From: Burkholderiales bacterium
GTDB lineage: Bacteria > Pseudomonadota > Gammaproteobacteria > Burkholderiales > Burkholderiaceae_F
DNA length: 64,000 nt
Reading direction: 5' to 3'
NCBI GenBank assembly: GCA_020248865.1
Contig: JADCGS010000021.1
Location: 12,857 to 76,856 of the forward strand
Positions 5,401-54,267 of the stretch are shown here, piece by piece; positions within the stretch are counted from its first letter, which is position 1, and every line of letters starts with the position of its first letter. Below the pieces are notes generated by a model. It had not been told where the DNA came from. It did not search any database and worked only from the letters and a program-made list of their open reading frames with translations. A program made the translations under genes and the position numbers.

Positions 5401-5588
5401 GCAAACAGCACCGTTACCTGACGCCGCTGGTGGCGGCGCGCCGGCGCGGAGGAGGCCAGTGCCGCCAGTTGCGCGCGCAGCGGACCGATCGCAACGTCCA
5501 CCACGGCATCGCCGAGCAGTGCCCGCTGTGCTTCGAGGGCGTGGATCGCGGCCCGCAGCCGTGCGGCCTGCTCCGGGTCCGGCTTCAT
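2439..5588 (-). CDS. Class III adenylate/guanylate-cyclase domain fused to AAA/STAND ATPase and TPR-like C-terminal repeats
   Basis: Cyclase motifs VTVLFADITGYTTLSE, HMGDGIMAVW, GDTVNVAARL. Walker A LVGEPGIGKSRM; Walker-B-like MLFLDDLQWAD. Long helical-repeat tail. Start placed at ATG 5588 (MKPDPEQAARL); the longest ORF runs to 5936. Confidence 0.85.
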   Translation of the reverse strand: MKPDPEQAARLRAAIHALEAQRALLGDAVVDVAIGPLRAQLAALASSAPARRHQRRQVTVLFADITGYTTLSEHVDPERIGNMLGQFWGDVDALVRERRGRVYSHMGDGIMAVWSDTASSEDDAEQAVRTGLAMLEMIHSQGLLVAGTRVEAKMRVGINTGLAHVTDRDGQTATGDTVNVAARLQAAAEPGTLLISRSTFRQVRGVFEFADAGELALKGRAQPVQAYRVMRPLPRAFPAPRRGIEGVDTDLVGRAAPRQVLRARLLRATRASEPSLTVLVGEPGIGKSRMLSECRDMLETGIGPVRYFEGRAYLDSMRQPYALLRNIISHRFQIGDDEDPVTAIQKLAVGVSGLIGPKAGRIADSLGWLLGLAAQKGSESTADSTYRRNAAIRDTIDFFAAVAAGDLPAMLFLDDLQWADDASLDLLEQVLAAAAPGLSLIVAARPALLSRRPAWGADGSLHARQTALHLDPLDAAAAGRLVDQILAPADHVPPALRERLVAQSSGNPFHLEELIRMLIDDGVISTRGPWRIDMGRLDSERVPDTLVGVLQGRLDHLDAAEFRVLQVASVFGRCFWDSALAAVLHEMAGPDALPIDVPAVLQSLLGAELIYRVAGSRFGGAAEAEFRHDVLRAVAYDTLPLDERPRLHRCAADWLVPAAGDRGDEHALVIAEHLDKAVQRSEAADWYLRAARRAAAQALFTDALRLFAEAVDRLEDPARRIDVLLEQIYTMVTAGRHDDAKCLLQPMLAPDSRVSMSQQLRARSEMARIHALRDGDFQTAERLLLDGIALLPQVAADDPSHHLLQHQLGILQITVGRYSAAVDTLTRLIQHPAKSIEERRCRGWTLNALAHTHAHLGDSARAIALSQDADRLARENNDPRTVMAAIAQRGLVARQAGDWALAYRLFGEAQQLNHRHADIEKTATVASYLGEAALAMGDVDGAHAHFHEAGELSSRAGVVTELVRGVLGLAAVAARLGQRDLAALALRVACRHPAAGGEARRLAGWIEATYTLPAAASAAADPPLEQMRQRLRERLQTIRPDTSPQKEAA

Positions 5589-5781
5589 GGTGCCTGTTCT
5601 TGTCGTGCGATGGGGAAGTCCACCTGACCTAAACGGAATTTCAGGCAACACTTCGCAAACCCGGGTCGGAACTGGACCGGCGGCCGGTACCGGCCTCGAT
5701 GGCCTGGGACCGGCGCCCTTGCCTTGACGACCTGGAAGCCGCGCCCGGGTCGGCCTGCAACCCGGGCGCAGAGTTGGATTC

Positions 5782-7506
5782 CTACTGGGCAGACATCGGC
5801 AGCGCCAGTTTGGCCCCACCCAGGCGCACGGTGCCGGCGAGCGGAGGCAACATCGAACGATAGCCCGGCAGCGACGCGCCAGCCACCACCAGCCCCGGCG
5901 CGCTGCCGGCGTCGAAGGCGTAGGCCAGCGGCGCAAAGCTCACGCGCTGCGTGCCCGCGCCGCTCAGCGTCACCACTGCCTCGCGCAGCAGGCGCACCTC
6001 GCCGTCGGACCGCCGATCGACCAGCTTGACCACGATATCCCCGGTGCCGGCTTCGAGCACCGTCAGCTCGGCCTCGGCCGTACCCAACAGCAGCGCCGCC
6101 GCAGACAGCGGGGTGCCCTGCAGTTGCGCTACGTCGTCACGCTCCAGCAGCGGCGTCTGGTCCAGCATGCCGGAGCTGAGCGTCAGATGGCTGCCGCCCA
6201 GGGTGGGGACAGGCGCGCTGGGGTCAATGGTCAGCGCACGCTCCGGCGCCGCCAGGGTCGACACCGCCGACGCGGTTCCCGCCGGCGGCCACACCGGCGA
6301 GCTGCGCAGTTCCCCGTCGGGCTGCCCGGCCAGGACGTACTGCACCGCCGGCCAGTTGCCCGCGCCGTTGGCTTCACCCTTCAGCCAGTGGTCGAACCAG
6401 GCGAACATCGGCTTCGTCGGCCACAGCTCGGGGTCGTCGATGTCGTAGTGCGTGCCGTCCAGCACGATCAGCTTCTGGTCGCCGCGCGCGGCCTGCAGGC
6501 GGCCGAAGGCCTTGAAGGCGCTGGCCTGGAAGAAGTCGTGCCACATCGAGACGTGCAGGACCGGCGCGCGGATGCGGTCGGTCACGTCCAACGCGGCCCG
6601 GGCGGCGGGATTGCGGCCAGCGGCCAGCAGGTCCCCCCAGCGCGGCTGCAACTGGCTGGCGATCGGAAGGTCCGGGGTGATGGCGCGGGTCCACCAGCCC
6701 GACTCGGCCGGGTCGCCGGCCTCGATGGCGCCGAACATCTCTTCCAGCGCGTCGCCGGCCTGCCCCTTCAGCGCGCCGATCTGCGCCGCGGTCAGGCCCA
6801 GCCGGGCGTCGTGATCCTTGCTGTTGTCGAAGGACTGGCTCAGCACGAAGGGCAGCAGCGCCTCCCACTTGACCCGGCCTTCGGGAAAGATCACCCCGCC
6901 CAGGAAGTCCGGCGAGGTGGCCTGCGCGTACACGGCCTTGATCGAGGCCCGCCCGGAAGCGGCGGCCTGCAGCGAGGCCACGCCGCTGGCCGAGTCGCCG
7001 AAGATGCCGATACGCCCGTTCGACCACGGCTGCCGTTCGACCCAACGGATCAGCGCATCGCCGTCGCCCACCTCGTCGCCAAGGAACAGGCTGAACACCC
7101 CGTCGGACTTGAGGCGACCGCGCATCACCTGCACCACCAGCGCGTAGCCGCGGTCGGTGGCCTCGGTCCAGCCCACGTCCTCGGCGCGGGCCTCGATCTC
7201 GGCGTTGGCGTGCTCTTCGGGGAAGCCGCTGACCGGCGTGATCGGCAGGTCGTAGGGCGTACGCATGACCAGTGTCGGGAATGGCCCATTGCCCTGCGCC
7301 GGAAGGTAGACATAGGTGGCCAGCCGCGTCCCGTCGGCGCCGGCCACGCCGACTTCGACCATCCGGTGGCCGGCCACAGCGCGACGGAACTCGCTCAAGC
7401 CGACAACGGGGATTTCGGGGCCGGCATTGCCGGTGCCGACGCCGCCGCCGCCGCAAGCGGCCAGCAGCGAAACACATAATGGAAGTACCCACTTCACGAT
7501 CTTCAT
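5782..7506 (-). CDS. CocE/NonD-family (S15 X-Pro dipeptidyl-peptidase-like) alpha/beta hydrolase, predicted lipoprotein
   Basis: Start at ATG 7506 (MKIVKWVLPLCVSLLAACGGGG, lipobox LAAC) with AGGAG 7 nt upstream. Nucleophile elbow IGIFGDSASGV. Sequence is CocE/NonD-like throughout. Confidence 0.85.
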   Translation of the reverse strand: MKIVKWVLPLCVSLLAACGGGGVGTGNAGPEIPVVGLSEFRRAVAGHRMVEVGVAGADGTRLATYVYLPAQGNGPFPTLVMRTPYDLPITPVSGFPEEHANAEIEARAEDVGWTEATDRGYALVVQVMRGRLKSDGVFSLFLGDEVGDGDALIRWVERQPWSNGRIGIFGDSASGVASLQAAASGRASIKAVYAQATSPDFLGGVIFPEGRVKWEALLPFVLSQSFDNSKDHDARLGLTAAQIGALKGQAGDALEEMFGAIEAGDPAESGWWTRAITPDLPIASQLQPRWGDLLAAGRNPAARAALDVTDRIRAPVLHVSMWHDFFQASAFKAFGRLQAARGDQKLIVLDGTHYDIDDPELWPTKPMFAWFDHWLKGEANGAGNWPAVQYVLAGQPDGELRSSPVWPPAGTASAVSTLAAPERALTIDPSAPVPTLGGSHLTLSSGMLDQTPLLERDDVAQLQGTPLSAAALLLGTAEAELTVLEAGTGDIVVKLVDRRSDGEVRLLREAVVTLSGAGTQRVSFAPLAYAFDAGSAPGLVVAGASLPGYRSMLPPLAGTVRLGGAKLALPMSAQ

Positions 7507-8654: not shown

Positions 8655-11159
8655 TCACGCAGGCCGGTCTGCGCCTGCCGGCTGGCGCACGGTCTTCAGA
8701 AGGACGATCAGGTTTCCGCTTCCGTCATAGTAGGCGCGCGCGTCGTCCATCAGTGCCTTGACCAGGTGTACCCCCAGCCCGCCGATCGGCCGGTTGGCCA
8801 GATCGAGGTCGAGATCGGGTTCCGGCGCCGACCGGAACGGGTCGAAGGGCGGCGCGTCGTCCTTGAGGATGATCTCCAGCCACTCGACCGAAATGCTCAT
8901 GCGCACCCGGATGATGCGGTCCGACCGACCCTTCAGGCCGTGCGTGATGATGTTGGTGATCAGCTCCTCCAGGCACAGATTGGCCGAGAACGCAAGATCG
9001 GGCCGATCGGGAAGCGCCGCCGACACCGCATCGGCAAGGCGCTCGATCTCGGGCAACTGCGTCGGCAGGCTGTACTCGAGCAGCAGGACCTTGTTCGTCA
9101 TCGGGACGCTGGGCGGCACGGGCATGGCGAGTTCTCCTCTCGCTCGGCTCAATATCAGGCAGGTCAGGTCATCTGACGCTTCGGCGCCCGCCACGAAGGC
9201 GCTCACCTCGGCGACGAGGTGGCCCACCATGGCCTGCGCGTCCAGATCCGCGCGATTGCGGGCGAACCAGTCCTGCAACCGCCGGTTGCCAAAGGCCTCA
9301 CCGTTGGGCTCGAACGCCTCGGTGACGCCATCCGTATACATCAGCATGGCCTCACCGGGACCGAGCCGGTCATGCAGGGTAACGTAGTCCATTCCCGGCA
9401 ACACCGCCAGCGCCACATCGAAGACCGCCGGCAACTCGACTACCCGGCCATCGGCACGCCGCACCAGAGGCGCGGGGTGGCCACCGGAGGCGTACTCGAT
9501 ACGGCCCGAGGCCGGATCATAGATGGCGTAGAAGACCGTGATGAACAGCTGCATCGGGTTGCGCTGGCACAACAGGTCATTGGCCTGCGCCAGCACCTCG
9601 GCCGGCGGCCGCCCGGTAGCCGCCAGGTCGAGCAGCACCGTGCGCGAAACGGCCATGAAGAAGGCCGCCGCAACGCCCTTTCCGGAGACGTCGGCCACCA
9701 GCACGCCAGTCCGGCCGTCGGGCAGGGTCAGCATGTCGTAGAAGTCGCCGCCCAGCTCGCGTGCCGGCCGCATCAACCCGTAGATCTGCCAGTCGTCTCC
9801 GCCGGGAAACTCCTGGGGCAGCAGCGCGCGCTGCATGTCGCGGGCCAGCGCCAGCTCCTCCTGCACCCGGTGCGCCGCCGCGCTGAGCTGCGTGTTGGTC
9901 TCGGCCAATTCGGCGGTGCGCGCCCGCACCTGCTCGGAAAGCTCGCGCTCGCGCGACTCGTTCTGTTCGCGGATCAGCGCGAGCAGGCGCTCGAACTCTT
10001 CGGCCACTGTATTGAAGTTGCGCGCAACGTCCACCAGCTCGTCGCGCGTTTCGACGCGGATGCGGGCGTCGAGTCGCCCCGCACAGAAGTCGGCCGTGCC
10101 CCGCGACAGCCGGTTCAGCGAACGCAGGGTGGACACGTAGATTCCGGCAAAGAGGTAGGCAATCGCCGCCAGCGCGACGACCAGCAGCAGGCCAACCACC
10201 CACTGCGAACGGATCAACCTGTCGATACGTGCCTTCAGGTACTCGTCGGCCGCGAGGTTCTTGGCCCGGATCAGTTCCAGCGCACGCGCCTGGTTGGCGC
10301 GCGCCAGGGCGGGCAACTCAGGGCCGGCCTGCTGGCCGTCGACAATCTTGTCGGCGGCATCGAGCTGGGCAAGGACGCCAGTCTGCAGCGACTGCAGCAG
10401 CGGGTCCAGGCTCCGGGCGTTCGGGTACACGGAGCGCAACTGCGCTGTCGCCTCGGCCAATGCGGGCAGTGCCTCGGTCAGCACCACCTGGGCGCTGAAC
10501 GCGAACGGCGCGAGCTCGGGCGCGCCCATGGCCAGCGCCGTGCTGTGCTTGCCGAGCATGTCCAGGACCTGCGGCAGGCGGACGGTCAGCGCGCTGACGG
10601 TGGCATCGAGCTCCGGATCGACGTTCAGGCGGTGGTCCTGCGCGCTGCTCTGAATCAGCGTCAGCAGCGGATTGACGACCGCGTTGTAGGCAGCGAAGCG
10701 TTGCGCGTTGCCGTCGGCGGCACCCACGCCGCGCGCGAGCTGCCACGCCTCCATCAACTGGCGTGCCGCCGTTTGGCCGGCGCGCCGAGTAAAGGGCTGC
10801 TGCGACAAGGCGACCAGCCGCTCATCGAGCGCGGCCGGCCCCCGCGCCCCGCTCGGGCTGCCCCGGGGATCGTCGCGCTGGCGAACCAAATCGGCCAGCA
10901 ATTCGGTGGCGGACAGAACCACGCGCAAGCCCAGCCGCTCGCGTTCCGCCACCGCCAGCTCGTGGCGCAGGCCTTGCACCAGCGGGATGCTCAGCGCACC
11001 CAGCGCCAGCACGACTACAACGCCGATCAGCAGGTACTTGCGAGAGAAGCTGAGCAGGCCGGACAGCCTGACGGACGGCTCCAGCCAAGCCGGCGAGCCG
11101 CGCTCCACCAGCCCCCGGGGGCTGGCGAGTCGCTCCGGAGCCGAAGGCCCCTGTGTCAT
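8655..11159 (-). CDS. Membrane sensor: periplasmic domain, HAMP, PP2C/SpoIIE phosphatase and RsbW-like HATPase (anti-sigma kinase) fusion
   Basis: Two TM segments (YLLIGVVVVLALGALSIPLV; WVVGLLLVVALAAIAYLFAGIYV). HAMP (RLDARIRVETRDELVDVARNFNTVAEEF). SpoIIE motifs (GGDFYDMLTLPDGRTGVLVADVSGKGVAAAFFMA; MLMYTDGVTEA). C-terminal HATPase_c-like region (LEELITNIITHG ... GGLGVHLVKALMD). Stop is 25 nt before the STAS gene. Confidence 0.85.
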   Translation of the reverse strand: MTQGPSAPERLASPRGLVERGSPAWLEPSVRLSGLLSFSRKYLLIGVVVVLALGALSIPLVQGLRHELAVAERERLGLRVVLSATELLADLVRQRDDPRGSPSGARGPAALDERLVALSQQPFTRRAGQTAARQLMEAWQLARGVGAADGNAQRFAAYNAVVNPLLTLIQSSAQDHRLNVDPELDATVSALTVRLPQVLDMLGKHSTALAMGAPELAPFAFSAQVVLTEALPALAEATAQLRSVYPNARSLDPLLQSLQTGVLAQLDAADKIVDGQQAGPELPALARANQARALELIRAKNLAADEYLKARIDRLIRSQWVVGLLLVVALAAIAYLFAGIYVSTLRSLNRLSRGTADFCAGRLDARIRVETRDELVDVARNFNTVAEEFERLLALIREQNESRERELSEQVRARTAELAETNTQLSAAAHRVQEELALARDMQRALLPQEFPGGDDWQIYGLMRPARELGGDFYDMLTLPDGRTGVLVADVSGKGVAAAFFMAVSRTVLLDLAATGRPPAEVLAQANDLLCQRNPMQLFITVFYAIYDPASGRIEYASGGHPAPLVRRADGRVVELPAVFDVALAVLPGMDYVTLHDRLGPGEAMLMYTDGVTEAFEPNGEAFGNRRLQDWFARNRADLDAQAMVGHLVAEVSAFVAGAEASDDLTCLILSRARGELAMPVPPSVPMTNKVLLLEYSLPTQLPEIERLADAVSAALPDRPDLAFSANLCLEELITNIITHGLKGRSDRIIRVRMSISVEWLEIILKDDAPPFDPFRSAPEPDLDLDLANRPIGGLGVHLVKALMDDARAYYDGSGNLIVLLKTVRQPAGADRPA

Positions 11160-13270: not shown

Positions 13271-15145
13271 TCAGACGGCCGCGCCGCGCGAGCGCTCGGC
13301 GTACCGCGGCCAACCCGAGCTGGCGTCGAGCGCGAGGCAAGCCTCGTCATAGCCCTGCTGCACGGCCTGCGCGTAGCTGCCCCACTGCAGCATGCCGATG
13401 CGCGGCATGGCAGGCCGCACCACGAGGTCGGCCTGCCGCGCAGCCGCGCGTTGGCGCGCCGTGCCGTGCAGCGCGGTCACGTTCATCAGGTAGTTGGGCA
13501 GGCTGGGCAGACGGTAGCGGCGCTGCCGGCGCGGCCGCAGGCGGTCGCGCAGCAGTTGCCAGGGCGTGGGCATGACCTCGATATCCAGCGGGCGGGGCGT
13601 ATCCAGCCCGAGGTCGACACCAACGACGTAGCCGATACCCCAGGTGTTGCGCATCACGTCCACCGGGAAGTTGTTGAGCACGCCGCCATCGCACAGCAGC
13701 TCGCCGCCCAGCAGGACCGGCGGCAGCGCACCGGGGATCGCGCAACTGGCCATCACCGCCGGCACCAGCGGTCCCGCGTCCAGAACCACCTCGCGGGCGC
13801 GCGCCACGCTGGTCGCAATGCACGCGTACGAATTCCAGAGGTCTTCGATCTGAAGGCCTGCGGCACCACCAAAGCGCTGCTCGGTCCAGTCCATCATGCC
13901 GCGCAGCCGCTGGCCCTTGACCAGCGCCAGCAGTGGCATCAGCGTCCAGTCGCCGGTGGGATTGGCGGCGAAGTGCCGGGCGAAGGTCTCGCGCACCGCC
14001 TCGGCGCTGACACCGAAGGCCATGAGTGCGCCGAACACGGCGCCCATGCTGGTGCCGGCAACGGCGTCCACCGGCACGCCGCGCTCGAGCAAGGCCCGGT
14101 AAACGCCGACGTGGGCCGCGCCGCGCGCGCCACCGCCCGACAGCACCAGACCCACGCCGCGCCGGCCCAGCAGGCGGGCCAGCCGTGTCACGCCGGCGGC
14201 ATCTCCTTCGCGCAGATGCACATGCGCCGACAGCCGCCGAGGGGCGCGCCAGCGCGCCGTGCCCGTGGGGCAGAGGCGGCCCGGCTGCTGCAGCAGCACC
14301 AGCACCGTGGCCGGAGCCGGCTGCCCATCGCCGTCGGCGAGCCGGCAGTCCCGCTCGATGGCACCGGGCGCCGGATCGTCGTCTGCGTGCGCCAGCAGCA
14401 CGACCTCGTCGCCCTGGCGCGTGCAGCAACGGGTCCAGGCGGTGGGTGCGGGGTCGGCCAGCAGCAGCAGCAGGTCGTGCTCGGACTCGATGCGGTCCAG
14501 CGCCACCGCCATGCGGCGCGCCGATTCGGCGTCGTCGCCCGGCGGCTGGCCGATGCAGGCGCTGATCGCCGCTGCATCAACCCGGGCCACGCGGCCGTGG
14601 CGCGCCAGCTCTGCGGCCACACCATCGACCAGCGCCCGCACCGTGGCCGCGTCGACGCGACCACCGAGCGGCAGGAACGCGATGGCCACCGGACGGTCCG
14701 GCCGCACCCCTTGGCCCTGGGACTGCAGCCGGCCGATGATCTGCCGCGTCAGCGCCATGGTCACGGCCGGGTGCTGCCGGACCAGGGCGTCGAAGCTCGG
14801 CCGGCTCAGCCGCGCCAGCACCGAGTCGCGCACCGCCACCAGGGTCGCCGAGCGCGGCGCGTCGGCGATCAGGCTCATCTCGCCGACGACCTGCCCGCGG
14901 GTGATCTCGCGCATCGTGCGGCTGCGGCCGTCGGCGCCGGTGATGCTCACGCGCAGCCGGCCGGATGCCAGCACATACATGGCGTCGCCGGGTTCGCCCT
15001 CGCGCATCAGCACGCCGCCGGCGGGCAACTCCAGCCACTCCACTCCCGCCTGCAGCGCGCCGATCACGCCCTCGTCGGCGCCCTGCAGGAAAGCGCGCAG
15101 GTGGGATTGCAGCAGTTCGTCGAGACGCAGGTTGGGTGCAAACAT
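13271..15145 (-). CDS. Cyclic-nucleotide-binding domain + patatin-like phospholipase (NTE-like), paralog 1
   Basis: Start at ATG 15145 (MFAPNLRLDELL). CNB phosphate-binding cassette GEMSLIADAPRSATLVA. Patatin motifs GLVLSGGGARGAAHVG (oxyanion), GTSMGA (GxSxG) and CDGGVLNNFPVD (catalytic Asp). Confidence 0.9.
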   Translation of the reverse strand: MFAPNLRLDELLQSHLRAFLQGADEGVIGALQAGVEWLELPAGGVLMREGEPGDAMYVLASGRLRVSITGADGRSRTMREITRGQVVGEMSLIADAPRSATLVAVRDSVLARLSRPSFDALVRQHPAVTMALTRQIIGRLQSQGQGVRPDRPVAIAFLPLGGRVDAATVRALVDGVAAELARHGRVARVDAAAISACIGQPPGDDAESARRMAVALDRIESEHDLLLLLADPAPTAWTRCCTRQGDEVVLLAHADDDPAPGAIERDCRLADGDGQPAPATVLVLLQQPGRLCPTGTARWRAPRRLSAHVHLREGDAAGVTRLARLLGRRGVGLVLSGGGARGAAHVGVYRALLERGVPVDAVAGTSMGAVFGALMAFGVSAEAVRETFARHFAANPTGDWTLMPLLALVKGQRLRGMMDWTEQRFGGAAGLQIEDLWNSYACIATSVARAREVVLDAGPLVPAVMASCAIPGALPPVLLGGELLCDGGVLNNFPVDVMRNTWGIGYVVGVDLGLDTPRPLDIEVMPTPWQLLRDRLRPRRQRRYRLPSLPNYLMNVTALHGTARQRAAARQADLVVRPAMPRIGMLQWGSYAQAVQQGYDEACLALDASSGWPRYAERSRGAAV

Positions 15146-15431
15146 GACACGGCCAGAATATCGCAGGCAACGGCCGGCCAAGCAGGGGGGCGGCGCCGGA
15201 TGCGCCGCCGCACTGGCGCAGCGGGCTCCGCGCAGGCCGTGAACCGGGACACCCTGCGAGGTCGCGCAGACAGGCCCGCAGCGCCCGGGGCGGACGCACG
15301 CTTGCCCCGCCGCCGGCCCGGCGGCGAAAGCTGTGCCCGGCCGCCATGGCTGCCCGCCGAAATCGGCGATCCAGGCGGCGATCCTTGTCGTCGATGAACC
15401 CAAACCTTGTCCACGGCGTCAAACTCGCGTC

Positions 15432-39977: not shown

Positions 39978-40592
39978 TCAGCGCGGCGCGGCGTGGCGCC
40001 GCTCGATCTCGGCCACCAGCGCCTCGAACTGCTCGCGCATCGCATGGCGCACGCCGAGCGTGCCCAACACGGCGGGCAGCGCCGGCACCAGCTCGAACTG
40101 CGCCTCGTAGCGCAGCAGCGCGCCGGCCGGGCTCGGCTGCAGCTCGTAGCGGCTGCGCAGGTCGAGCACGGCCGAGCCGTCGGGCCGCTCGCGCGAACCG
40201 CCTGCGGCGAGCACGCGCAGCGGCGGCTCGTGGACCACCGCCAGGCGCAGCCGCACCGCGCGGCGCAGGAACAGATAGCGGTACTGACCGTCGTAGTCGA
40301 CCGTCAGGTGCGAGCCGTTGCGCTCGACCACCTGCACCCGGTGCAGGTCGGGCACGAACTGCGGCAGCCGCTCGTAGTCGGTCAGGGTGTCCCAGGCCGG
40401 CAGCGGCAGCGCTTCCAGCAGCGCCTGGGCCTGCACGAGGTAGCGCTCGCCCACGCGCTGCACCTGCACCTGGGCGCGCCCGGACTCGGCTCGCGCCGGC
40501 CGCGCCGGCCAGGCTTCAAGCGCCGGCAGCGCGATCGCCCAGGCGACGAATCGCCTGCGCGTTGGTCCAGGAGAAGCAAGCGTCGGCGGCAT
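39978..40592 (-). CDS. SRPBCC (START / polyketide-cyclase-like) family protein with Tat-like signal
   Basis: MPPTLASPGPTRRRFVAWAIALPALEA.. then SRPBCC-like sequence (..DYERLPQFVPDLHRVQVVERNGSHLTVDY..). With ATG 40592 it overlaps the nudB 3' end by 77 nt, so the start is uncertain. Confidence 0.6.
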   Translation of the reverse strand: MPPTLASPGPTRRRFVAWAIALPALEAWPARPARAESGRAQVQVQRVGERYLVQAQALLEALPLPAWDTLTDYERLPQFVPDLHRVQVVERNGSHLTVDYDGQYRYLFLRRAVRLRLAVVHEPPLRVLAAGGSRERPDGSAVLDLRSRYELQPSPAGALLRYEAQFELVPALPAVLGTLGVRHAMREQFEALVAEIERRHAAPR

Positions 40593-40968
40593 CGCGCCAG
40601 TCGAGCCAGCGCCAGGCGCGGTGCTCGCGCGGGGCCAGTTGCGGGGTGAAGCGCCCGGAGACCTGCAGGCCGAAGACATGCTCGACATTGTGGGTCACGC
40701 CGGGCGCGTAGCGGTGCCGCCATTGCGGAAAGATCGCGTAGCGATGCACCCGCCGCCAGTCGTCAAAGGCCGCCGCCGGCGCCGCATGACCGGTCTCCTC
40801 CGCCACTTCGCGCGCACAGGTGACCGCCAGCGGCTCGTCCGGCGTGGCGCGGCTGCCGGTGACCGACTGCCAGAAGCCGGGGTGATCGACCCGCTCCAGC
40901 AGCAGCACGTCCAGCGCGCCGGTGTGGATGACCACCAGCACCGACTCGGGGATCTTGTGGCCGGTCAC
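40516..40968 (-). CDS. nudB: Nudix hydrolase, dihydroneopterin triphosphate pyrophosphatase-like
   Basis: GTG 40968 (VTGHKIPESVLVVIHT). Nudix box GFWQSVTGSRATPDEPLAVTCAREVAEETG. Located directly downstream of aspS, as is typical for nudB. Confidence 0.8.
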   Translation of the reverse strand: MTGHKIPESVLVVIHTGALDVLLLERVDHPGFWQSVTGSRATPDEPLAVTCAREVAEETGHAAPAAAFDDWRRVHRYAIFPQWRHRYAPGVTHNVEHVFGLQVSGRFTPQLAPREHRAWRWLDWRDAADACFSWTNAQAIRRLGDRAAGA

Positions 40969-41078
40969 GGCAGCGGTGGCGGGACGCAGCAGCGGGGCGC
41001 CGGATCGAGGGCGGTGCAGTGCGGGCGCGGCGCGATGCACCGGCGCGTCGTGCAGCAAGACGCGCCGGTGACCCGCGC

Positions 41079-47009: not shown

Positions 47010-48380
47010 ATGCCGAAGAACAGCAAGCCCGCCGAGCACCCCGCGCTGGCGGCCATCCGCAACGCCCCCGGCCATCGCGTCAAGGTGGCCGTCAGCGACA
47101 TCGACGGCGTGTTGCGCGGCAAGTATCTGAACAAGGAGAAGTTCTTCGCGGCGGCGGAGTCCGGCTTCGGTTTCTGCGACGTCGTGTTCGGCTGGGACAT
47201 GATGGACGCCTGCTACGACAACACCCAGGTGACCGGCTGGCACCGCGGCTTTCCGGATGCCATGGTACGGCTCGATCTGGACACCTATCGCACGGTGCCC
47301 TGGGACGACCAGGTGCCTTTCGTGCTCGGCGAGTTCGTCGGCGCCGACGGCGGCCCCTACCCGGTCTGCCCGCGCCAGGTGCTGCGCCGCGTGCTCGATC
47401 GCGCCGGCAAGCTCGGCCTGCAGCCGATGTGCGGCATGGAGTTCGAGTGGTTCAACTTTGCCGAGACGCCGCAGAGCTGGGCCGAGAAGAAGGGTGTGGG
47501 CCCCGAGCCCATCACGCCGGGAATGTTCGGCTACTCGCTGCTGCGCGCCAACCACGCGCGCGAGTTCTTCAAGGCGCTGATGGAAGAGCTGGCCGCCTTC
47601 CGCGTGCCGCTCGAAGGGCTGCACACCGAGACCGGCCCCGGCGTCTACGAGGCGGCGATCCTGTTCTCCGGCGCGCTCGAAGCCGCCGACCGCGCGCTGC
47701 TGTTCAAGGGTGCAACCAAGGAGATCGGCGCACGCTTCGGCATCATGCCGAGCTTCATGGCCAAGTGGCACCAGCGGTACCCGGGCTGCTCGGGCCACGT
47801 GCACCAGTCGCTGTCGGACGGCAAGAACAACCTGTTCTTCGACGCCAGGGGCAGGCACAGGATGAGCCGGCTCTTCGAGAGCTATCTGGCGGGGCAGGTG
47901 GCGCTGCTGATGGAGTTCGCGCCGATGTTCTGGCCCACCGTCAACAGCTACAAGCGGCTGGTGGACGGCTTCTGGGCGCCGGTCAAGCCCACCTGGGGAG
48001 TGGACAACCGCACCGCCAGCTTCCGCGTGATCCCCGGCTCGCCCAAGAGCACGCGGCTGGAGACGCGCTGCCCCGGCTCCGACGTCAATCCCTACCTTGC
48101 CATCGCCGCGCTGCTGGCGGCCGGACTGCACGGCGTGGAAAGGAAACTCAAGCTGACCGCGTCGCCGATCACCGGCACCAACGTCGGCAGCGAAGGCACG
48201 CCCCGCGCGCCCCGCTCGCTCAAGGAGACCACCGCCGTCTTCAAGACGAGCGCTGCGGCGCGCGACTGGTTTGGCGACGACTTCGTCGACCACTTTGCCG
48301 CCACCCGAGAGTGGGAGTGGCGGCAGTGGCAGGACGCGGTCACCGACTGGGAGCGGATGCGCTACTTCGAGATCGTGTAG
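47010..48380 (+). CDS. Glutamine-synthetase-family protein (GlnA / gamma-glutamyl-amine synthetase-like)
   Basis: ATG 47010 with TAGGAGGA RBS. GS catalytic-domain sequence (..GMEFEWFNF.., ..HTETGPGVYE.., ..KWHQRYPGCSGHVHQSL.., ..NSYKRLV.., ..NRTASFRV..). Confidence 0.9.
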   Translation: MPKNSKPAEHPALAAIRNAPGHRVKVAVSDIDGVLRGKYLNKEKFFAAAESGFGFCDVVFGWDMMDACYDNTQVTGWHRGFPDAMVRLDLDTYRTVPWDDQVPFVLGEFVGADGGPYPVCPRQVLRRVLDRAGKLGLQPMCGMEFEWFNFAETPQSWAEKKGVGPEPITPGMFGYSLLRANHAREFFKALMEELAAFRVPLEGLHTETGPGVYEAAILFSGALEAADRALLFKGATKEIGARFGIMPSFMAKWHQRYPGCSGHVHQSLSDGKNNLFFDARGRHRMSRLFESYLAGQVALLMEFAPMFWPTVNSYKRLVDGFWAPVKPTWGVDNRTASFRVIPGSPKSTRLETRCPGSDVNPYLAIAALLAAGLHGVERKLKLTASPITGTNVGSEGTPRAPRSLKETTAVFKTSAAARDWFGDDFVDHFAATREWEWRQWQDAVTDWERMRYFEIV

Positions 48381-48429
48381 GCCGGGCGGCGACGCTGGCC
48401 CCCGGGCCTGCCTCGGCCCGAACGCGCAG

Positions 48430-48682
48430 CTAGCCCGGATGTTTCATCAGGGACGCGGGATTTGCGCGGATGCCCGCGCGAGCCAGATTGCGCGAGAGGG
48501 GCGCAGCCGATGCCCGCAGGCATCGGCGAGCACTTGAGCGCAAGATGGCCGCGCCGGCGCCGCGCAAAACCGCGTAGCCCCGGCCGTCCAAAGTGGCCTG
48601 GGGACAAGTGCAGGCTGCCGGCGCAGCTTACAGAGGCAGATCGTGGATGCACGGGGGCGACCTGGTGAAACATCCGGGCTAG
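48430..48682. mobile_element. MITE-like element (253 bp) with 22-bp terminal inverted repeats
   Basis: Left end CTAGCCCGGATGTTTCATCAGG (48430-48451). The right end (48661-48682) is its reverse complement with 1 mismatch. No transposase inside. Both ends start with CTAG. Confidence 0.6.
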
Positions 48683-50763
48683 GCGGATCCCGCGGTCCCG
48701 AGCCGGCGCAGGTGGTAGACGGGCTGGTCGCCGTAGTTCTTGGCAAGCGCCTGGATGCCGAGGTACTCGCAGCGGTACCACGGCGCGTAGATCTCGCCGG
48801 TCATCTGGCGCTCGTGCCGTACCGCGTTCTCCTCGGCCGTGAGGAGCGCGACGAACTGCTGCGAGGCGTAGATCTCGCCGGGCACGGTGACCGGCTCGAT
48901 GCGGGCGGTGCGGGACACATGGCTGCCGTAGATGATGGGCCGGCCGGTCAGCGGATGGCGGCCCTCGAACACGGGGCCGGCGTGCAGGCCGATCCGCCAC
49001 ATCAGCGGGTGGGGCAGCCGGTAGGCCGACGGATCGGCGGCCGCGAACCCTTGCTGCAGCGCGAAGGCGTACTCGAGCAGGCTGCGGGCGTCGGGCATCA
49101 CCACGTAGAGCGCATCGCCCCAGCTCTCCACCAGGCCGGGGCGCCGGCAGCCTGGCTCGATGCTCGCCTTCAGGTCCTCGAGCAGTTGCCACAATCCGGG
49201 CAGCGACTCCTCCGACAGTTTGGAGAAACCGACGATGTCGCCGAACAGCATGGCCTTGACCACCCGCTCGGGCTCCTGCACCGGCGGCTTGGGCACGATC
49301 GGTGCCCGGCGGTCGGCCAGTGACGGCGGCGGCGGCGGGGCCGCGGCACGCAGCTCGTCGATCTCGATCAGCCGCAGCCGCGCGATGTCGGGCCAGTGGT
49401 CCATGAAGTCGGCCGCGGTGCCCGCCCGCTGCTGGGTCTCGTAGTCCCAGACCAGCATCAGGTACGGCTCCGTGTCGAGCATGCGGGCGCGCAGGCGCGC
49501 CATGCCGTCGATCACCTGGTTGTTGAAGCGGAACAGCATGTCGTGGCCGAGGTAGCGCTCCTCGGTGGCAAAGCTCACCGTGGTGGCGAGCCGCAAGGCG
49601 GCGCGGAAGCGCTGCTCCCAGCGCGGGCCGGCGTAGGAGACGCGCGCAGCCACGAAGTCGTCCACCGCGCAGGGCAGGAACAGGTGCACCTCGGCATTGC
49701 GCTCGATCATCGCCTCGACGAACAGCAGGTCGGAGCCGCAGGCTGCCGAGCAGTAGCCGATGGCGGCATCCAGTTCGTGCAAACGGCGCTGGATCGCGTC
49801 CTTGACCACCCCTTCGAGGTGCGGCGGGAAGGTGGGGCGCGACTGCCCCGGCAGGTCCACCGGCTCGCCGGCAAACACGACGAGGACCGGCGGACGCAGG
49901 ATGTCGAAGACCTCGCCGGGGACCGGAAAGCCCCGCTCCCGCAGCAGCGCGAAGCGCTGCCGCACCGGCACGACCTGGCTGTAATGGGTGGCGGGCGAAA
50001 GCGCCGCCGCCCGGAACAGCTCCCGCGCGGCGGGCACGTCGTCCAGCAACAGCTGGGCCTCGGCTTCATTGGCCAGCAGCGCGAAGGTGGCTTGCCGGTC
50101 CGCCGGCTGGCGCCTGAGGGCGGCGATCGCCTCGAACGCGAGCTCGCGCGCCCGGCCGGGCTCGCGCAGGAGCCACGACAGCATGGCGGCCCGCACGCCG
50201 TGGTCGGGCCGCGCGCTCAGCTTGAAGCTGCTGAGGTGGGAATCGCGGCTGCGCCGCAGGTCCGCCTCTTGGCCGGTGTCGCTCCAGGTCTCGAGGTGGA
50301 TCTGGGCAAGCAGCTCCAGCAGCTCGTGGTCCTCGGGATCGTCGGCGCGCAGCCGGCCGCCGAGCCGGACCATTTCGCGCGCCGCGGCCGCCACCTGGTC
50401 GAGCAGGGCCGCCGGCGGCTCCTCGCCCGCCGGCACGGCGAGCAGGCCGGGCAGGCAGCGCCGCAGCGCGCCGATGGCCTCCCGCGCCGTCTGATCGGTG
50501 GTGCCCAGCGAGTCCTGCAGCCGGCCGAGGAGCCGGCGCGCTTCCGCCGTGGCGCCGCAGCGCATCAGCGCCAGCGCCCCGAGGAAGCGGATCTTCACGC
50601 TGTCGGGGTGGTCCTGCAGCGCCTTCTGCGACAGGTCGTAGGCGAGAAAGCACTGCCCCTCGGCCACCAGCTTGCGCAGTGCAGCCAGCCACTCGCGCTC
50701 ATTGGACGGGCGCCCGAGGCCCGACCCGGTCCAGCCGGCATTGCGGTCCAAGCGGTCGCTCAC
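48679..50763 (-). CDS. Multidomain signalling protein: N-terminal TPR-like helical repeats, central Rossmann-like domain, C-terminal class III nucleotide cyclase domain
   Basis: 694 aa, GTG start at 50763. Cyclase motifs MLFGDIVGFSKLSE, ESWGDALYVV, YGSHVSRTARIE. Central alpha/beta domain VLVVFAGEP...IGYCSAACGSDLLFVEAMIERNAEVHLFLPC. Helical N-terminus. The stop codon lies inside the MITE terminal repeat. Confidence 0.8.
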   Translation of the reverse strand: MSDRLDRNAGWTGSGLGRPSNEREWLAALRKLVAEGQCFLAYDLSQKALQDHPDSVKIRFLGALALMRCGATAEARRLLGRLQDSLGTTDQTAREAIGALRRCLPGLLAVPAGEEPPAALLDQVAAAAREMVRLGGRLRADDPEDHELLELLAQIHLETWSDTGQEADLRRSRDSHLSSFKLSARPDHGVRAAMLSWLLREPGRARELAFEAIAALRRQPADRQATFALLANEAEAQLLLDDVPAARELFRAAALSPATHYSQVVPVRQRFALLRERGFPVPGEVFDILRPPVLVVFAGEPVDLPGQSRPTFPPHLEGVVKDAIQRRLHELDAAIGYCSAACGSDLLFVEAMIERNAEVHLFLPCAVDDFVAARVSYAGPRWEQRFRAALRLATTVSFATEERYLGHDMLFRFNNQVIDGMARLRARMLDTEPYLMLVWDYETQQRAGTAADFMDHWPDIARLRLIEIDELRAAAPPPPPSLADRRAPIVPKPPVQEPERVVKAMLFGDIVGFSKLSEESLPGLWQLLEDLKASIEPGCRRPGLVESWGDALYVVMPDARSLLEYAFALQQGFAAADPSAYRLPHPLMWRIGLHAGPVFEGRHPLTGRPIIYGSHVSRTARIEPVTVPGEIYASQQFVALLTAEENAVRHERQMTGEIYAPWYRCEYLGIQALAKNYGDQPVYHLRRLGTAGSA

Positions 50764-51246
50764 GGAAAGATGCCCGGCATCCCGGTGGCCCGCCTCGCAG
50801 CACCGTCGGTCGACTCAGCGGGCTGGGCCTTGTCAGGAGACCCTGCGCTTGCCGCGTCAAGGGGGCACCGCTCACCCGCGAGTCCTGCGACGGGGCGGGA
50901 TGCGCCAGCGGCACGCCATGGCGTCGCGGCAGCTCTTGCAGAGGCGGATTCGATGGGCAACGACACAACTTCCTGGCAAGCGCGGACTGTAGAGGATGCT
51001 GCCGGTACCACGCAGGAGGCCGTTGCCGCCTCATGGGTCAAGGCCCCGCGTGACGCCCAGCGCCCCCGGGCGTTGATCACCGTTCCGTGTCCGAGGATAG
51101 AAAGTTCGAGCCGGCTCGGCAAGGTCGGGTCGCACCCGATGCCGCAGCCGATGCCGCAGCCGACGTCGCACCGGCACCGCGCGACGCCCGCGCGCCCGGC
51201 GACCGCGAGATGCCACTAGCCACGGACAGGGCTAGTCCCCTGCGCG

Positions 51247-53112
51247 CTACTGCGGCGGCGGCGGCGCGCCCCGCTCGAGCACGGCCGACAGATCCGCCCG
51301 CGCCAGGACCTCGCGCGCGTGGGAAAGACCCTCGGCCACCACGGTGTCGAACTTCCTCCACTGGAGCATGCCCACGCGCAGGGTCGGCGGCTTGAAGATG
51401 AGGTCGACCGTGGCATGGGCCTCTGCCTGGCGCGACATGCTGTACATGACGTTGACCTTCATCAGGATCGCCACCAGCGATGGCAGCCGGTAGCGACGCA
51501 TGCGGCGGGGCCTGAGCCAGTCGAGGAACAGCTGCAGGTTGCTGGGCAAGCGGTCGAGCGCCAGCGGCCGGTTCCGAGGAGTGACCAGGTCGACGCCCAG
51601 CACCACGCCCACGCCGCGCGTGCGCCGCATCACATCGACCGGGAAGTTGTTGAAAATGGCCCCGTCGACGAACAGGTCGCCACCCTCGACCAGCGGCGGC
51701 AGGGCGCCCGGGATCGCCGTGCTGGCCACGATGGCGCGCTCGACCGAGCCGGTGCGCCACACCTCCTCCCGGGCCCGGGAGTAGTTGGTGACCACGCAGA
51801 AGCAGGGCTTCCACAGATCTTCGAGTCCGGCGTCCGGTCCGGCCAGGCGCACGAAGGCGTGGCCCGTGACCGTGCGCATGCGCTCGCCCTTGATGAGCGA
51901 CAGGACTGGCGTGAGCGCAAAGTCGCCGGTCGGGTTGCGGCTGAATCCGCTGCGCACTTCGTCGATCACCTCGTCGAGCGGCCGGTCGGTGGCCAGCACG
52001 GCTGCCATGGCCGCACCCATGCTGGTACCCCCGAACACGTCGACCTCGATGCCCGCTGCGGCCAGCGCCTGCGCCACGCCCAGGTGCGCAAAGCCGCGCG
52101 CGCCGCCGCCGGCCAGCACCAGACCGACCGCACGGCGCGCCTGCAGCCGTGCCAGCCGCGCCATATCCCGGTCCTGTCCGGCACGCACGTGCACCACTTC
52201 GGCCAGCGGCCGGCGCGCCAGCCAGCGCGCGGTGCCCACGGGCGCGACGGCGTCCGCGGGATGCAGCAGCACCAGGATCTCGGCCGCCTCGGCCCGGCCG
52301 GGGCGGCCCTGCAGCAACGCCTGCTCGGTCGGATGCAGCGCCACGGGCGCCTTCGCATCGGCGAGCAGCAGAATCTCGTCGGCGTGGCGCACGCAGGCTT
52401 CGGTCCAGGGCGTCGGCGCGGCGTCGGCCGCCAGCAGCACGAAGTCGTGCTCGGCCTCGGCATCGTCGAGGCGGGCGCCCATGTGCTGCGGCGGGTTCGC
52501 GTCCGGATCGCGGCCCGCAGCCGGCGCCCCCAGCGTGACCGTGCTGCCATGTTCGGCCAGCCGCTCGGCCAGTGCATGCGCGAAGCCGGCGGCGTCGATG
52601 CCGGCGGTGATCGGCACCAGGGCGATCGTCGCGGGGCGGTCGCCGGGGGCCGACCGGCGATCGCTGCGCAGCCGCTCGATGATCTGCCGCGTGATGGCGC
52701 GGGACAGCGCGGGACTGGATGTCTGCAAGCCCTCGAAGCCCGCAGGGTCCAGGCGTGCCAGCACGGAGTGGCGCACCGCCACCACCGTGGCCGAACGAGG
52801 TTCGCCGGTGATCAGGCTCATCTCGCCGATCAGCTGGCCGCGGCCCATGTCGCGCACTGCGCGCTCGGTGCCGGCGTCATCGAGCACATAGGCGCGCAGA
52901 CGGCCCGACACCACCAGATACAGCGCATCGCCGGGCTCGCCCTGGCGCAGCAGCGTCTGGCCGCCCGGCAGCGCGACGCGCTCCAGCCGGCCAGCCACCT
53001 CGCGCAGCACCGGCTCCTGCACGTCCGGCAGCCAGTCGTGCAGCAGTTGCATCAGTCGCCCGGCAAGATGCCGCCATGCATGCTGCGTCGCGTCAAGCGA
53101 GCGGGAAACCAT
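51247..53112 (-). CDS. Cyclic-nucleotide-binding domain + patatin-like phospholipase (NTE-like), paralog 2
   Basis: CNB cassette GEMSLITGEPRSATVVA. Patatin motifs GLVLAGGGARGFAHLG, GTSMGA, VDGAIFNNFPVD. Same three-part architecture as 13271-15145. Confidence 0.9.
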   Translation of the reverse strand: MVSRSLDATQHAWRHLAGRLMQLLHDWLPDVQEPVLREVAGRLERVALPGGQTLLRQGEPGDALYLVVSGRLRAYVLDDAGTERAVRDMGRGQLIGEMSLITGEPRSATVVAVRHSVLARLDPAGFEGLQTSSPALSRAITRQIIERLRSDRRSAPGDRPATIALVPITAGIDAAGFAHALAERLAEHGSTVTLGAPAAGRDPDANPPQHMGARLDDAEAEHDFVLLAADAAPTPWTEACVRHADEILLLADAKAPVALHPTEQALLQGRPGRAEAAEILVLLHPADAVAPVGTARWLARRPLAEVVHVRAGQDRDMARLARLQARRAVGLVLAGGGARGFAHLGVAQALAAAGIEVDVFGGTSMGAAMAAVLATDRPLDEVIDEVRSGFSRNPTGDFALTPVLSLIKGERMRTVTGHAFVRLAGPDAGLEDLWKPCFCVVTNYSRAREEVWRTGSVERAIVASTAIPGALPPLVEGGDLFVDGAIFNNFPVDVMRRTRGVGVVLGVDLVTPRNRPLALDRLPSNLQLFLDWLRPRRMRRYRLPSLVAILMKVNVMYSMSRQAEAHATVDLIFKPPTLRVGMLQWRKFDTVVAEGLSHAREVLARADLSAVLERGAPPPPQ

Positions 53113-53589
53113 GAGCCGAACTCCGCAAGTCCCGGAAAGCTCTACATGCTAGAGAACGGCCAAACCGGCGTCGTCCCGGGCGCAGTCTCGATCTCGTGCT
53201 GGTGGACAAGAAACCACAGTGCACCGCGGCCCACGGGGCAACACGCTGCGAGCGCTGCAGCCGGATCGTCATGCCCGCCAGCCGGCACTCCACCGCCATC
53301 GCACGCCTGGGCGAAGGCCGCGCTGCGCCCGAGTTCGAGGCCATCACCGAGTTCCTGGTGGACACGACCCGTGCGGGGCCAAGCACCGGGGGCGGGCGCT
53401 GCAGGGCCGACGGGCGCCGGGAGAAACTAGGAGAAATTAGGGTCAGACCCCGATTTGCCCCGGTTTACGCCGGCCGCTCGGACGGATACTCCCTCTCCGG
53501 GCGCGGCGGGTTGCGACGGTAGCCAGCGGAGTAAAACTTGTGCGCAAGTCTGGGAGCGCAAGTCCGCGTTGGGACTACCGACAGAACCC

Positions 53590-54267
53590 ATGACGCAGTC
53601 CCCTCGTCGGATCCCCAGGGCAATCGTCAGCTTCGATCTAGACGGCACGCTCGTGCGCGGCATCAGCAGCGGCCAGTTCGTGGCCGATCGACTCGGTCAC
53701 GGAGACATCCTCCGCACACTGGAGTTGCAATACGACACGGGCCTGATGTCCGCCCAGGCGGTCGCTGCGACGGAAGCCCCTTACTTCAGCGGCAGATCGC
53801 GCGAGAACATCACCTCGATCATGCGCGACGTTCCGCTCATCGAGGGCATCCGCGAAACCTTGCAGGAACTGCACAGACGCAGCGTCTTCACCGTCCTCAA
53901 CACGTTGGCGTGGCGATTCATGGCCAGCGCGGTCGGCGATCGATTCGGCTTCGACGAGTGGACCGGCGCCCGGATGAATTGCGGCCCGGGCGGCCTGCTG
54001 ACCGGAGCGGTCGCCCGGCACTTCGACGAGCGCGACAAGGTGCGAGCGGTCGCGCGGCTCGCACATCGCTTCGGCGTGCCGATGTCGCGGATCGCGGCGG
54101 TTGGCGATGCGCGCTCGGACATCCCGTTGTTTCGGGCGGTGGGCTTCTCGATCGCCCTGAACGGATCGGCGCAAGCCCGGGCGGCGGCGAGTGTTGCGGT
54201 CGCAACGCCGTGGCTACCCGACATTCTGCGGGCGCTGCCGCCCCACTTTCTGCCCGCTGAGGATTGA
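53590..54267 (+). CDS. HAD-superfamily phosphatase (HAD-IB / SerB-like)
   Basis: Start at ATG 53590 (MTQSPRRIPRAIVSFDLDGTLV, motif I DxDGT). ..AVGDARSDIPLF.. (motif IV). Confidence 0.8.
   Translation: MTQSPRRIPRAIVSFDLDGTLVRGISSGQFVADRLGHGDILRTLELQYDTGLMSAQAVAATEAPYFSGRSRENITSIMRDVPLIEGIRETLQELHRRSVFTVLNTLAWRFMASAVGDRFGFDEWTGARMNCGPGGLLTGAVARHFDERDKVRAVARLAHRFGVPMSRIAAVGDARSDIPLFRAVGFSIALNGSAQARAAASVAVATPWLPDILRALPPHFLPAED

Follow-up and report, generated by a model that had tools for sequence, protein, structure and literature searches.

The window analysed here, a 64,000-nucleotide stretch of contig JADCGS010000021.1 from a Burkholderiales bacterium (assembly GCA_020248865.1, positions 12,857 to 76,856 of the forward strand), contains a gene for a cyclic nucleotide monophosphate (cNMP)-binding domain (CNB) fused to a patatin-type lipase (CNB-patatin) and a gene for a multi-domain protein with a class III nucleotide cyclase domain. 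Both genes lie on the minus strand in the order CNB-patatin, 483-bp gap, cyclase. An initial annotation, made from the sequence alone, had described these two co-oriented genes and their spacing, both of which were confirmed by the open reading frames (ORFs) listed in Table 1, and had proposed that the genes form a signal-effector module with the logic of the anti-phage systems Pycsar and CBASS. The same gene order was found in a second Burkholderiales metagenome-assembled genome (MAG; GCA_020248805.1, sister locus L082), which is 98.5% identical over the locus and whose cyclase is 98.6% identical over 694 amino acids. The two genes are thus co-oriented and adjacent in both sequenced strains.

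Table 1 Positions of the features discussed in the text. Positions refer to the window, except for the last row, where they refer to the named loci.
Feature	Position	Strand	Basis or remark
CNB-patatin gene	51247..53112	-	621-aa ORF
cNMP-binding domain, residues 47-129	52726..52974	-	Pfam PF00027, E 8.4e-22; cassette GEMSLITGEPRSATVVA
NTE P-loop-like domain, residues 162-315	52168..52629	-	Pfam PF24179 (NTE_Ploop), E 1.8e-20
Patatin domain, residues 331-494	51631..52122	-	Pfam PF01734, E 6.2e-28
Non-coding spacer	50764..51246	.	483 bp between the CNB-patatin and cyclase genes
Cyclase gene	48679..50763	-	694-aa ORF
N-terminal all-helical TPR region (TPR-S type), residues ~20-288	49900..50706	-	Weak profiles and model
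Central alpha/beta SLOG-like domain, residues 286-480	49324..49908	-	Motif IGYCSAACGSDLLFVEA; structure matches
Class III cyclase catalytic domain, residues ~495-690	48694..49281	-	Pfam PF00211, alignments, Foldseek
Miniature inverted-repeat transposable element (MITE)	48430..48682	.	245-bp element 48434-48678, with flanking CTAG duplication that includes the cyclase stop codon
CNB-DASS transporter genes	L001 4155-6089, L002 2536-4407, L004 1677-3524		

Pfam detected just three domains in the CNB-patatin protein, and each scored above its cut-off (cNMP_binding, 77.4 versus 27.5 bits; NTE_Ploop, 74.2 versus 27 bits; Patatin, 98.7 versus 27.7 bits). In an alignment of 21 homologous sequences, residues G96, E97, R106 and A108 of the phosphate-binding cassette were invariant, and so were the patatin motifs, namely the oxyanion hole GGGARG (residues 335-340), the nucleophile motif GTSxG with S364 (here GTSMG) and D483-G484. 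The domain assignments and this invariance bear out the earlier description of a CNB domain with an intact cassette, fused to a patatin domain with its catalytic elements present. Judged from the intact cassette and patatin dyad, the lipase looks active. At least 3651 homologues were found, and the best 120 all had the same architecture at ~52-57% identity and stemmed mostly from the Rubrivivax, Roseateles, Piscinibacter and Pelomonas group. Several close homologues are already named ‘NTE family protein’ by JGI. The NTE family (PNPLA6/7, Swiss cheese and Mycobacterium tuberculosis Rv2565) shares with the CNB-patatin protein the domain order of cNMP-binding, NTE P-loop-like and patatin domains, as well as the Ser-Asp dyad and the GGxRG oxyanion hole. 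With all of these features and the cassette present, we assign the protein on sequence grounds to the bacterial NTE family. It has a single CNB domain, whereas animal NTE has three. Rv2565 of M. tuberculosis is listed as a cNMP-binding-domain protein and as an esterase. Our literature search retrieved no paper showing cNMP regulation of any bacterial NTE-family CNB-patatin protein.

The cyclase protein consists of an N-terminal helical region, a central alpha/beta domain and the C-terminal catalytic domain. The helical region matched the TPR-S profile (Pfam PF20308) with 20-22 bits, below the cut-off of 27.6 bits, and TPR_19 was a further weak match. Among 73 sampled relatives, TPR-S was above its cut-off in 44 and MAP3K_TRAF_bd was found in 26. 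A full-length AlphaFold model based on 49 homologues (predicted local distance difference test score, pLDDT, 90; predicted template modelling score, pTM, 0.89) was helical over residues 22-288. Hence, of the TPR-like helices and class III cyclase domain that had been reported earlier, the cyclase is upheld by its profile and the helices by the model, while the TPR-S score of this protein itself stays under the threshold.

The central domain (residues 286-480) had no Pfam family match, even at E ≤ 10, and a whole-protein Foldseek search returned cyclase matches only. A separate AlphaFold model of these residues (pLDDT 94) was needed to reveal the fold. Its best Foldseek matches were DprA, ShosA, the LOG-like protein TT1887, the Moco carrier protein and LOG (E 6e-6 to 1e-2), all of which belong to the SLOG superfamily; the template modelling (TM) scores were moderate (0.3-0.44) and the match probabilities of the top 14 ranged from 0.89 to 1.00. 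Family alignments showed eight invariant residues in this domain (G299, D303, G336, G343, E350, D369, W382 and R385) and a glycine-rich loop of the pattern G-x(6)-G-[ST]-[DE]. The suggestion of a SLOG-like central domain, which had been based on the glycine loop, was thus borne out for the predicted fold and not for membership in a Pfam family. The domain has a Rossmann-like fold in common with the SLOG sensors Thoeris ThsA, LOG, DprA, YpsA and Moco carrier protein, but its TM scores are only in the range given above, no Pfam SLOG family matches its sequence, and it feeds a cyclase output, whereas known SLOG sensors feed SIR2, TIR or transmembrane (TM-segment) effectors. SLOG is the signal-sensing domain of Thoeris ThsA.

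The catalytic domain matched the Guanylate_cyc profile (residues 504-651) with 40.9 bits versus a cut-off of 21.9 bits (E 2.2e-10), and its Foldseek matches were guanylyl and adenylyl cyclase domains, with target-normalised TM scores of 0.70-0.77 for the top seven. Catalytic positions were fixed by HMMER alignment to the Chlamydomonas guanylyl cyclase 3ET6 and to the alpha subunit of soluble guanylyl cyclase (sGC), and by the family alignment. The metal ligands D509 and D550 were invariant, R621 was invariant in 20 sequences and nearly so in 49, and the GD and RxxxE motifs were nearly invariant across the 49 cyclase homologues. By profile, predicted fold and these metal-binding Asp and Arg residues, the protein is a class III nucleotide cyclase. 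The domain also looks active, as far as its sequence tells, since the metal Asp residues and Arg621 are kept and the family is conserved at 40-57% identity.

The roles of the base-selecting and transition-state positions are established by mutagenesis of adenylyl and guanylyl cyclases. In the cyclase of the window, the Lys position is occupied by E546 and the Asp/Cys position by I610, R608 lines up with the Arg that guanylyl cyclases have together with Glu and Cys, and the transition-state Asn position is occupied by S617. The manual mapping in the initial annotation, in which Glu, Ile and Ser stand in for Lys, Asp and Asn and both metal Asp residues are kept, was upheld by the 3ET6 and family alignments. 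More distant family members have Asn at this last position (HVNRAAR), and Ser617 is, to judge from the alignments, a clade variant of an otherwise standard site. Neither of the canonical base-selecting pairs (Lys/Asp or Thr for ATP; Glu/Cys for GTP) is present. The best sequence match in the PDB was the guanylyl cyclase 3ET6 (5e-8), and adenylate or adenylate/guanylate cyclase chains followed at 2e-3 or weaker. The guanylyl cyclases sGC, CYG12/3ET6, RhGC and cyanobacterial Cya2 match the catalytic fold (TM 0.63-0.77, normalised to the targets) and share the Glu at the Lys position, the Arg two residues before the Cys position, the metal Asp residues and the catalytic Arg. They differ from the cyclase of the window in the third selector (Cys, Gly or Ser instead of Ile) and in the transition-state Asn that is replaced by Ser here, and the module of TPR-S and SLOG-like domains is unlike the input modules of characterised guanylyl cyclases. 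As two of the three selectors (Glu546 and Arg608) are guanylyl-cyclase-like and the third is Ile, cGMP or a mixed specificity is as plausible as cAMP for the candidate product.

A word-index search of 5.8 billion proteins gave 50 matches to the cyclase, the best of which, after the sister strain, were 56-57% identical, and those with names came from Magnetococcales, Chromatiaceae and Telmatospirillum. At least 570 relatives turned up in a scan of GTDB genomes, with a patchy distribution over Alpha-, Gamma- and Betaproteobacteria, Holosporales, Spirochaetota, Myxococcota and Armatimonadota-type MAGs. The SLOG-like domain, used alone as the query of an exhaustive phmmer search, was found in 2,712 clusters at 50% identity. 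Guanylate_cyc was present in 58 of 73 sampled proteins with this domain, and rare variants carried RyR, HATPase_c_2, CHAT or protein-kinase domains. The architecture of TPR-S, SLOG-like and cyclase domains is therefore that of a large and coherent family (>2,700 clusters), on which our literature search found no experimental work. We also considered a recent horizontal transfer of the cyclase gene. The GC content of ~70-72% around the pair is uniform across the region and gives no compositional reason to assume one; an older transfer would be compatible with how patchily the family is spread over taxa.

The genomic surroundings of both families were compared in two samples. The patatin-side sample comprised 80 metagenome loci picked solely by their similarity to the patatin protein, and the cyclase-side sample comprised 80 genome loci centred on relatives of the cyclase with 10 kb on each side. 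With an ad hoc cyclase hidden Markov model (HMM), eight cyclase domains were detected among the patatin loci. Six of these were at most 2.5 kb away from the patatin gene (23 per Mb) and two farther out (5 per Mb), and 1.15 Mb of control flanks contained no cyclase domain by the same model. For this enrichment, the tests gave p = 0.002 against the far-flank rate (Poisson), p = 0.044 within loci (binomial) and p = 3e-4 against the control flanks, in a sample in which many contigs are short and the control flanks come from other taxa. The cyclases found beside CNB-patatin genes in the metagenomes were of the CHASE2-, Fer2-, MASE2-, receiver-, AAA16-TPR- and FHA-cyclase types. Thus, the class III cyclases that recurrently adjoin CNB-patatin genes come in at least six other architectures. 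In an hmmalign table derived from the ad hoc HMM, canonical cyclases were out of register at their GD motif, and the table was discarded.

Look-ups of CNB-patatin genes on long contigs revealed cyclase neighbours in four of six cases. Pelomonas sp. Root1217 has a phosphorelay operon in which the start codon of the patatin gene lies within the end of a receiver-cyclase gene, and next comes a gene for a second CNB protein. The CNB-patatin gene of Saccharospirillum stands divergently next to genes for a cyclase and a CRP-type regulator, and in a Piscinibacter MAG a cyclase-AAA16 gene is located 5.5 kb from it. No cyclase was detected within 6 kb of the CNB-patatin genes in the Roseateles and Rubrivivax look-ups. 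In four metagenome contigs (L083-L086), a cyclase-AAA16-TPR gene and an amine oxidase gene immediately precede a patatin orthologue with 86% identity. Such cyclase-AAA16-TPR proteins (M. tuberculosis Rv0386 type) are another cyclase type beside the same CNB-patatin family; they have an N-terminal cyclase followed by a STAND-type ATPase and TPR, and are not homologous to the cyclase of the window outside the catalytic domain. The Piscinibacter MAG contig (L169, 1-9846) additionally encodes a SulP-STAS-CNB transporter and a glutaminase-STAS-CNB protein along with the CNB-patatin and the cyclase-AAA16-TPR protein, an assembly that resembles a local cNMP regulon. A second recurrent neighbour of CNB-patatin genes is a fusion of acetyl-CoA hydrolase/transferase and GNAT, which adjoins them in three genomes (L169 3891-5858, L170 7863-9809 and L171 7926-9971) and overlaps the patatin stop codon in two of the three.

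On the cyclase side, a CNB gene was present in the flanks of eight of the 80 loci. In the three closest genome relatives, a CNB-fused transporter of the Na/sulfate-symporter type (DASS) is encoded 4-6 kb upstream of the cyclase on the same strand (Table 1), and at other loci genes for CNB-EAL, CNB-metallo-beta-lactamase-hemerythrin or CRP proteins occur nearby. A Spirochaetota MAG contains a single uninterrupted ORF (L075, 9974-13033, plus strand) with TPR-S, cyclase, cNMP_binding and SpoIIE (PP2C) domains, in which a SLOG-like segment is expected between TPR-S and the cyclase. By its domain content, this ORF represents a Rosetta-stone fusion that links this type of cyclase to a CNB-gated phosphatase and to partner-switching signalling. 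The fusion argues that the cyclase family produces a nucleotide that is read by ordinary CNB domains, and it would also explain the PP2C and STAS neighbours at other cyclase loci. Clustering of the neighbours across the 80 loci revealed no universal partner; the most common ones were receiver-histidine-kinases (18/80 loci), sensor PP2C (SpoIIE) phosphatases (10/80) and STAS proteins (10/80). The nearest non-trivial homologue of the cyclase (56% identity, locus P0002) is surrounded by Tad-pilus genes and genes for an MFS transporter, a dCache-SpoIIE-HATPase_c_2 protein and a STAS protein, and has no patatin gene within 10 kb. The window itself encodes a protein with HAMP, SpoIIE (PP2C) and HATPase_c_2 domains (8655-11159, minus strand), ~38 kb from the cyclase, which is the same type of partner-switching component as found next to relatives of the cyclase elsewhere.

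From these data, we lean with moderate confidence towards the reading that the two genes encode ordinary second-messenger components that probably act together, with a sensor-regulated cyclase controlling an NTE-type lipid hydrolase. From what we infer from the sequences about ligand, product, activation of the lipase and coupling of the two proteins, the TPR-S and SLOG-like domains would restrain or activate the cyclase upon sensing a small ligand, plausibly a nucleotide-derived one, or a partner protein. Once activated, the dimeric class III catalytic domain would make a 3',5'-cyclic nucleotide. Binding of this cNMP to the sole CNB domain of the adjacent NTE-type protein would release the patatin domain to hydrolyse (lyso)phospholipids, and the outcome would be membrane-lipid remodelling and not cell suicide. 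The pairing would be one of many interchangeable pairings of cyclases with CNB effectors. The proposed logic of a cyclase signalling through a cNMP to a CNB-patatin protein gains comparative support from the cyclases adjacent to other CNB-patatins and from the cyclase-CNB-PP2C fusion, whereas the idea of a conserved pair does not. The genomic context, which consists of signalling and housekeeping genes, also speaks for this reading.

Several observations weigh against it. The two genes are not conserved as this exact pair: among 81 related cyclase loci, not one had a CNB-patatin gene within 10 kb, and a tblastn search with the patatin protein against the 80 loci of the cyclase-side sample gave one match, which covered the CNB domain alone. 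The idea of a conserved two-gene module thus finds no support in these genomes, and for this specific pair the lack of conserved synteny is what the initial annotation had itself named as refuting its proposal. The side-by-side arrangement is lineage-specific, being found only in this lineage. The 483 bp between the genes are non-coding and there is no evidence for an operon. The Ser at the transition-state Asn position may lower the activity of the cyclase. The enrichment of cyclases beside CNB-patatin genes is statistically modest, and two of the loci in that sample (L096 and L098) are probably orthologous and not independent. The selector residues of the cyclases beside other CNB-patatins, read directly from the sequences, are K/T, K/D, Q/T, S/T, R/R and D/R, and this variety provides no clue to the nucleotide preferred by the CNB domain. 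Lastly, the genome is dense in cNMP-signalling parts, which makes a chance adjacency likelier and the assignment of partners from their position ambiguous.

The last point leads to the main alternative, that the two genes are chance neighbours, which we regard as less likely though quite possible. Both would be cNMP-signalling genes that need not communicate, and the cyclase may feed other CNB effectors while the lipase may heed other cyclases. Such independence would fit the lack of the pairing at the 81 related cyclase loci and the non-coding 483 bp with no sign of co-transcription. It would also fit the further cNMP-signalling genes of the window, which contains a second cyclase (2439-5936, minus strand) of the Guanylate_cyc-AAA_16-MalT-like TPR type, followed by a flavin amine oxidase (904-2442), and a second CNB/NTE_Ploop/patatin protein (13271-15403, minus strand; 710 amino acids), a paralogue with 45% identity to the first, beside which no cyclase was detected. 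The second cyclase and the amine oxidase are the same gene pair as the one upstream of the 86% identical orthologue, which thus adjoins a cyclase type that is also present elsewhere in the window. Moreover, cNMPs diffuse, so that coupling needs no genetic linkage. What makes pure chance doubtful is that cyclases are enriched beside CNB-patatin genes in unrelated loci and occurred in four of the six long-contig look-ups, that links or fusions with CNB effectors recur in the cyclase family, and that both strains have the two genes side by side in the same orientation.

A more specific, two-tier relay can be drawn by analogy, and we consider it improbable. In such a relay, the SLOG-like domain would bind a nucleotide-derived signal, as in ThsA, and the non-canonical active site would make a cNMP other than cAMP that specifically activates the NTE-type phospholipase. 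If true, a family of more than 2,700 clusters would thereby gain its first defined input and output, and cNMP gating of a bacterial NTE would be demonstrated for the first time.

Anti-phage abortive infection with the logic of Pycsar or CBASS, in which infection would act on the TPR-S and SLOG-like domains, an unusual cNMP would be made and the CNB-patatin protein would destroy the membrane, appears very improbable. The likeness that had suggested it is real in principle. A cyclase beside an effector with a CNB domain that would recognise the cyclase product is the logic of Pycsar, and a patatin phospholipase switched on by a nucleotide second messenger is that of CBASS with CapV. The CNB region also matched the PycTIR and TIR effector profiles of PADLOC (residues 32-192, 1e-17), the SLOG-like fold matches ShosA and SLOG is the sensing domain of ThsA, the specificity residues of the cyclase are non-canonical, and a rare relative has a CHAT protease in place of the cyclase. 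However, the match to the PycTIR profiles covers the generic CNB domain only, and the cyclase matched no PADLOC model at E ≤ 0.01, including PycC. Effectors of Pycsar are CNB domains fused to transmembrane or TIR domains, whereas the CNB domain here is joined to NTE P-loop-like and patatin domains, and unlike Pycsar the locus has a 483-bp spacer, no conserved pair and no defence island. CBASS needs a CD-NTase, and no CD-NTase model matched either protein of the pair or any of the flanking genes examined, among which the class III cyclase is the sole synthase of a nucleotide signal. CapV senses cyclic dinucleotides without a CNB domain. The lipase is not identified as a CapV-type effector, as PADLOC phospholipase-effector models matched it only at residues 331-384 (54 residues; E 2e-4 and 6e-3).

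The neighbourhood likewise argues against a defence role. By Pfam, the flanking genes encode two HAD hydrolases, a LysR regulator, aldehyde-oxidase subunits, a GlnA-like enzyme, a GNAT protein and a solute-binding protein, with an aspartyl-tRNA synthetase gene farther out; the neighbours of the pair are housekeeping genes, and all eight immediate ones tested were PADLOC-negative. Among ten flanking proteins scanned, only an MNT nucleotidyltransferase ~7 kb away, which counts in favour of defence, and a generic methyltransferase touched PADLOC models. The nucleotidyltransferase, which matches the PADLOC candidate PDC-S09, forms a toxin-antitoxin-like pair with a HepT-like (HEPN) protein in the sister strain (L082 19450-20006), and coordinate mapping places this pair at about 40500-41060 of the window. 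Further arguments against defence are that there is no conserved two-gene unit, that the patatin family is abundant and conserved in Burkholderiales (~55% identity), that its members neighbour acetyl-CoA hydrolase-GNAT fusions, transporters and chemotaxis genes, that relatives of the cyclase reside among two-component and partner-switching genes, and that the GC content is uniform across the region while the adjacent MITE is a recent insertion in one strain only. With PADLOC matches that are generic only, housekeeping flanks and no conserved unit, the defence framing was not sustained; the pair is very probably not a Pycsar- or CBASS-like module, the evidence points to housekeeping, and the caveat given in the initial annotation, ordinary membrane-lipid signalling, is the better reading.

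That the cyclase domain is weak or dead and acts as a nucleotide-binding or regulatory module of a sensor or scaffold protein, for which inactive cyclase domains in other multi-domain bacterial proteins set a precedent (PMC7159879) and with which the Ser replacing the transition-state Asn in the clade, the lack of either canonical base-selecting pair and the modest Pfam score of 40.9 bits would agree, is the least probable explanation, because the metal Asp residues are invariant and Arg621, GD and RxxxE near-invariant in 49 homologues, a pattern that indicates selection for catalysis, because Asn is retained in many family members, and because the CNB fusion in the Spirochaetota MAG implies cNMP production.

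What is new in these results is modest and comprises a lineage-specific pairing, the tendency of CNB-patatin genes to recruit many kinds of cyclases, and a large cyclase family with a non-standard active site. Bacterial NTE-type lipases with CNB domains are abundant, and the literature searched gave no case in which the nucleotide or a physiological role is known. Their recurrent adjacency to varied cyclases leads to the testable hypothesis that a cNMP gates membrane-lipid hydrolysis. The cyclase family combines a central SLOG-like domain that has no Pfam model with a catalytic site that has no standard base-selecting pair, and to identify its ligand and product would close a gap in the biology of bacterial second messengers. 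For the discovery of defence systems, the locus is a negative result.

The initial annotation had also described the pair as bracketed by a MITE and a palindrome resembling repetitive extragenic palindromic (REP) elements. The MITE was borne out by comparison with the 98.5% identical sister locus, relative to which it is an exact 249-bp insertion placed precisely at the stop codon of the cyclase gene. Its 18-bp terminal inverted repeats (CCCGGATGTTTCACCAGG) are at 48434-48451 and 48661-48678, with CTAG at 48430-48433 and 48679-48682, and it is the sole copy in the window. Since both genes occur in the sister strain and the MITE does not, the element is uninformative on the mobility of the pair; it inserted recently and in one strain only, and it neither belongs to the signalling pair nor bounds a mobile module. 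The palindrome comprises just 11 nucleotides (GGGTCAGACCC, ~53440-53450) in the region that separates the divergent patatin and HAD genes, and nothing marks it as a REP element. We therefore rejected the two as brackets of a mobile module, one being absent from the sister strain and the other merely a short palindrome in divergent sequence.

The spacer between the two genes lacks the third-position GC periodicity of the genes on either side (GC3 plot). An Rfam scan of positions 48000-54000, which include the spacer, detected no RNA family at E ≤ 1, and a consensus scan of the spacer found no sigma-70-like promoter and no intrinsic terminator. The spacer is ~98% identical in the sister strain. 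At ~51135-51160 (minus strand) it contains a perfect tandem duplication of the 12-mer GGCTGCGGCATC, which is also present in the sister strain and is probably trivial.

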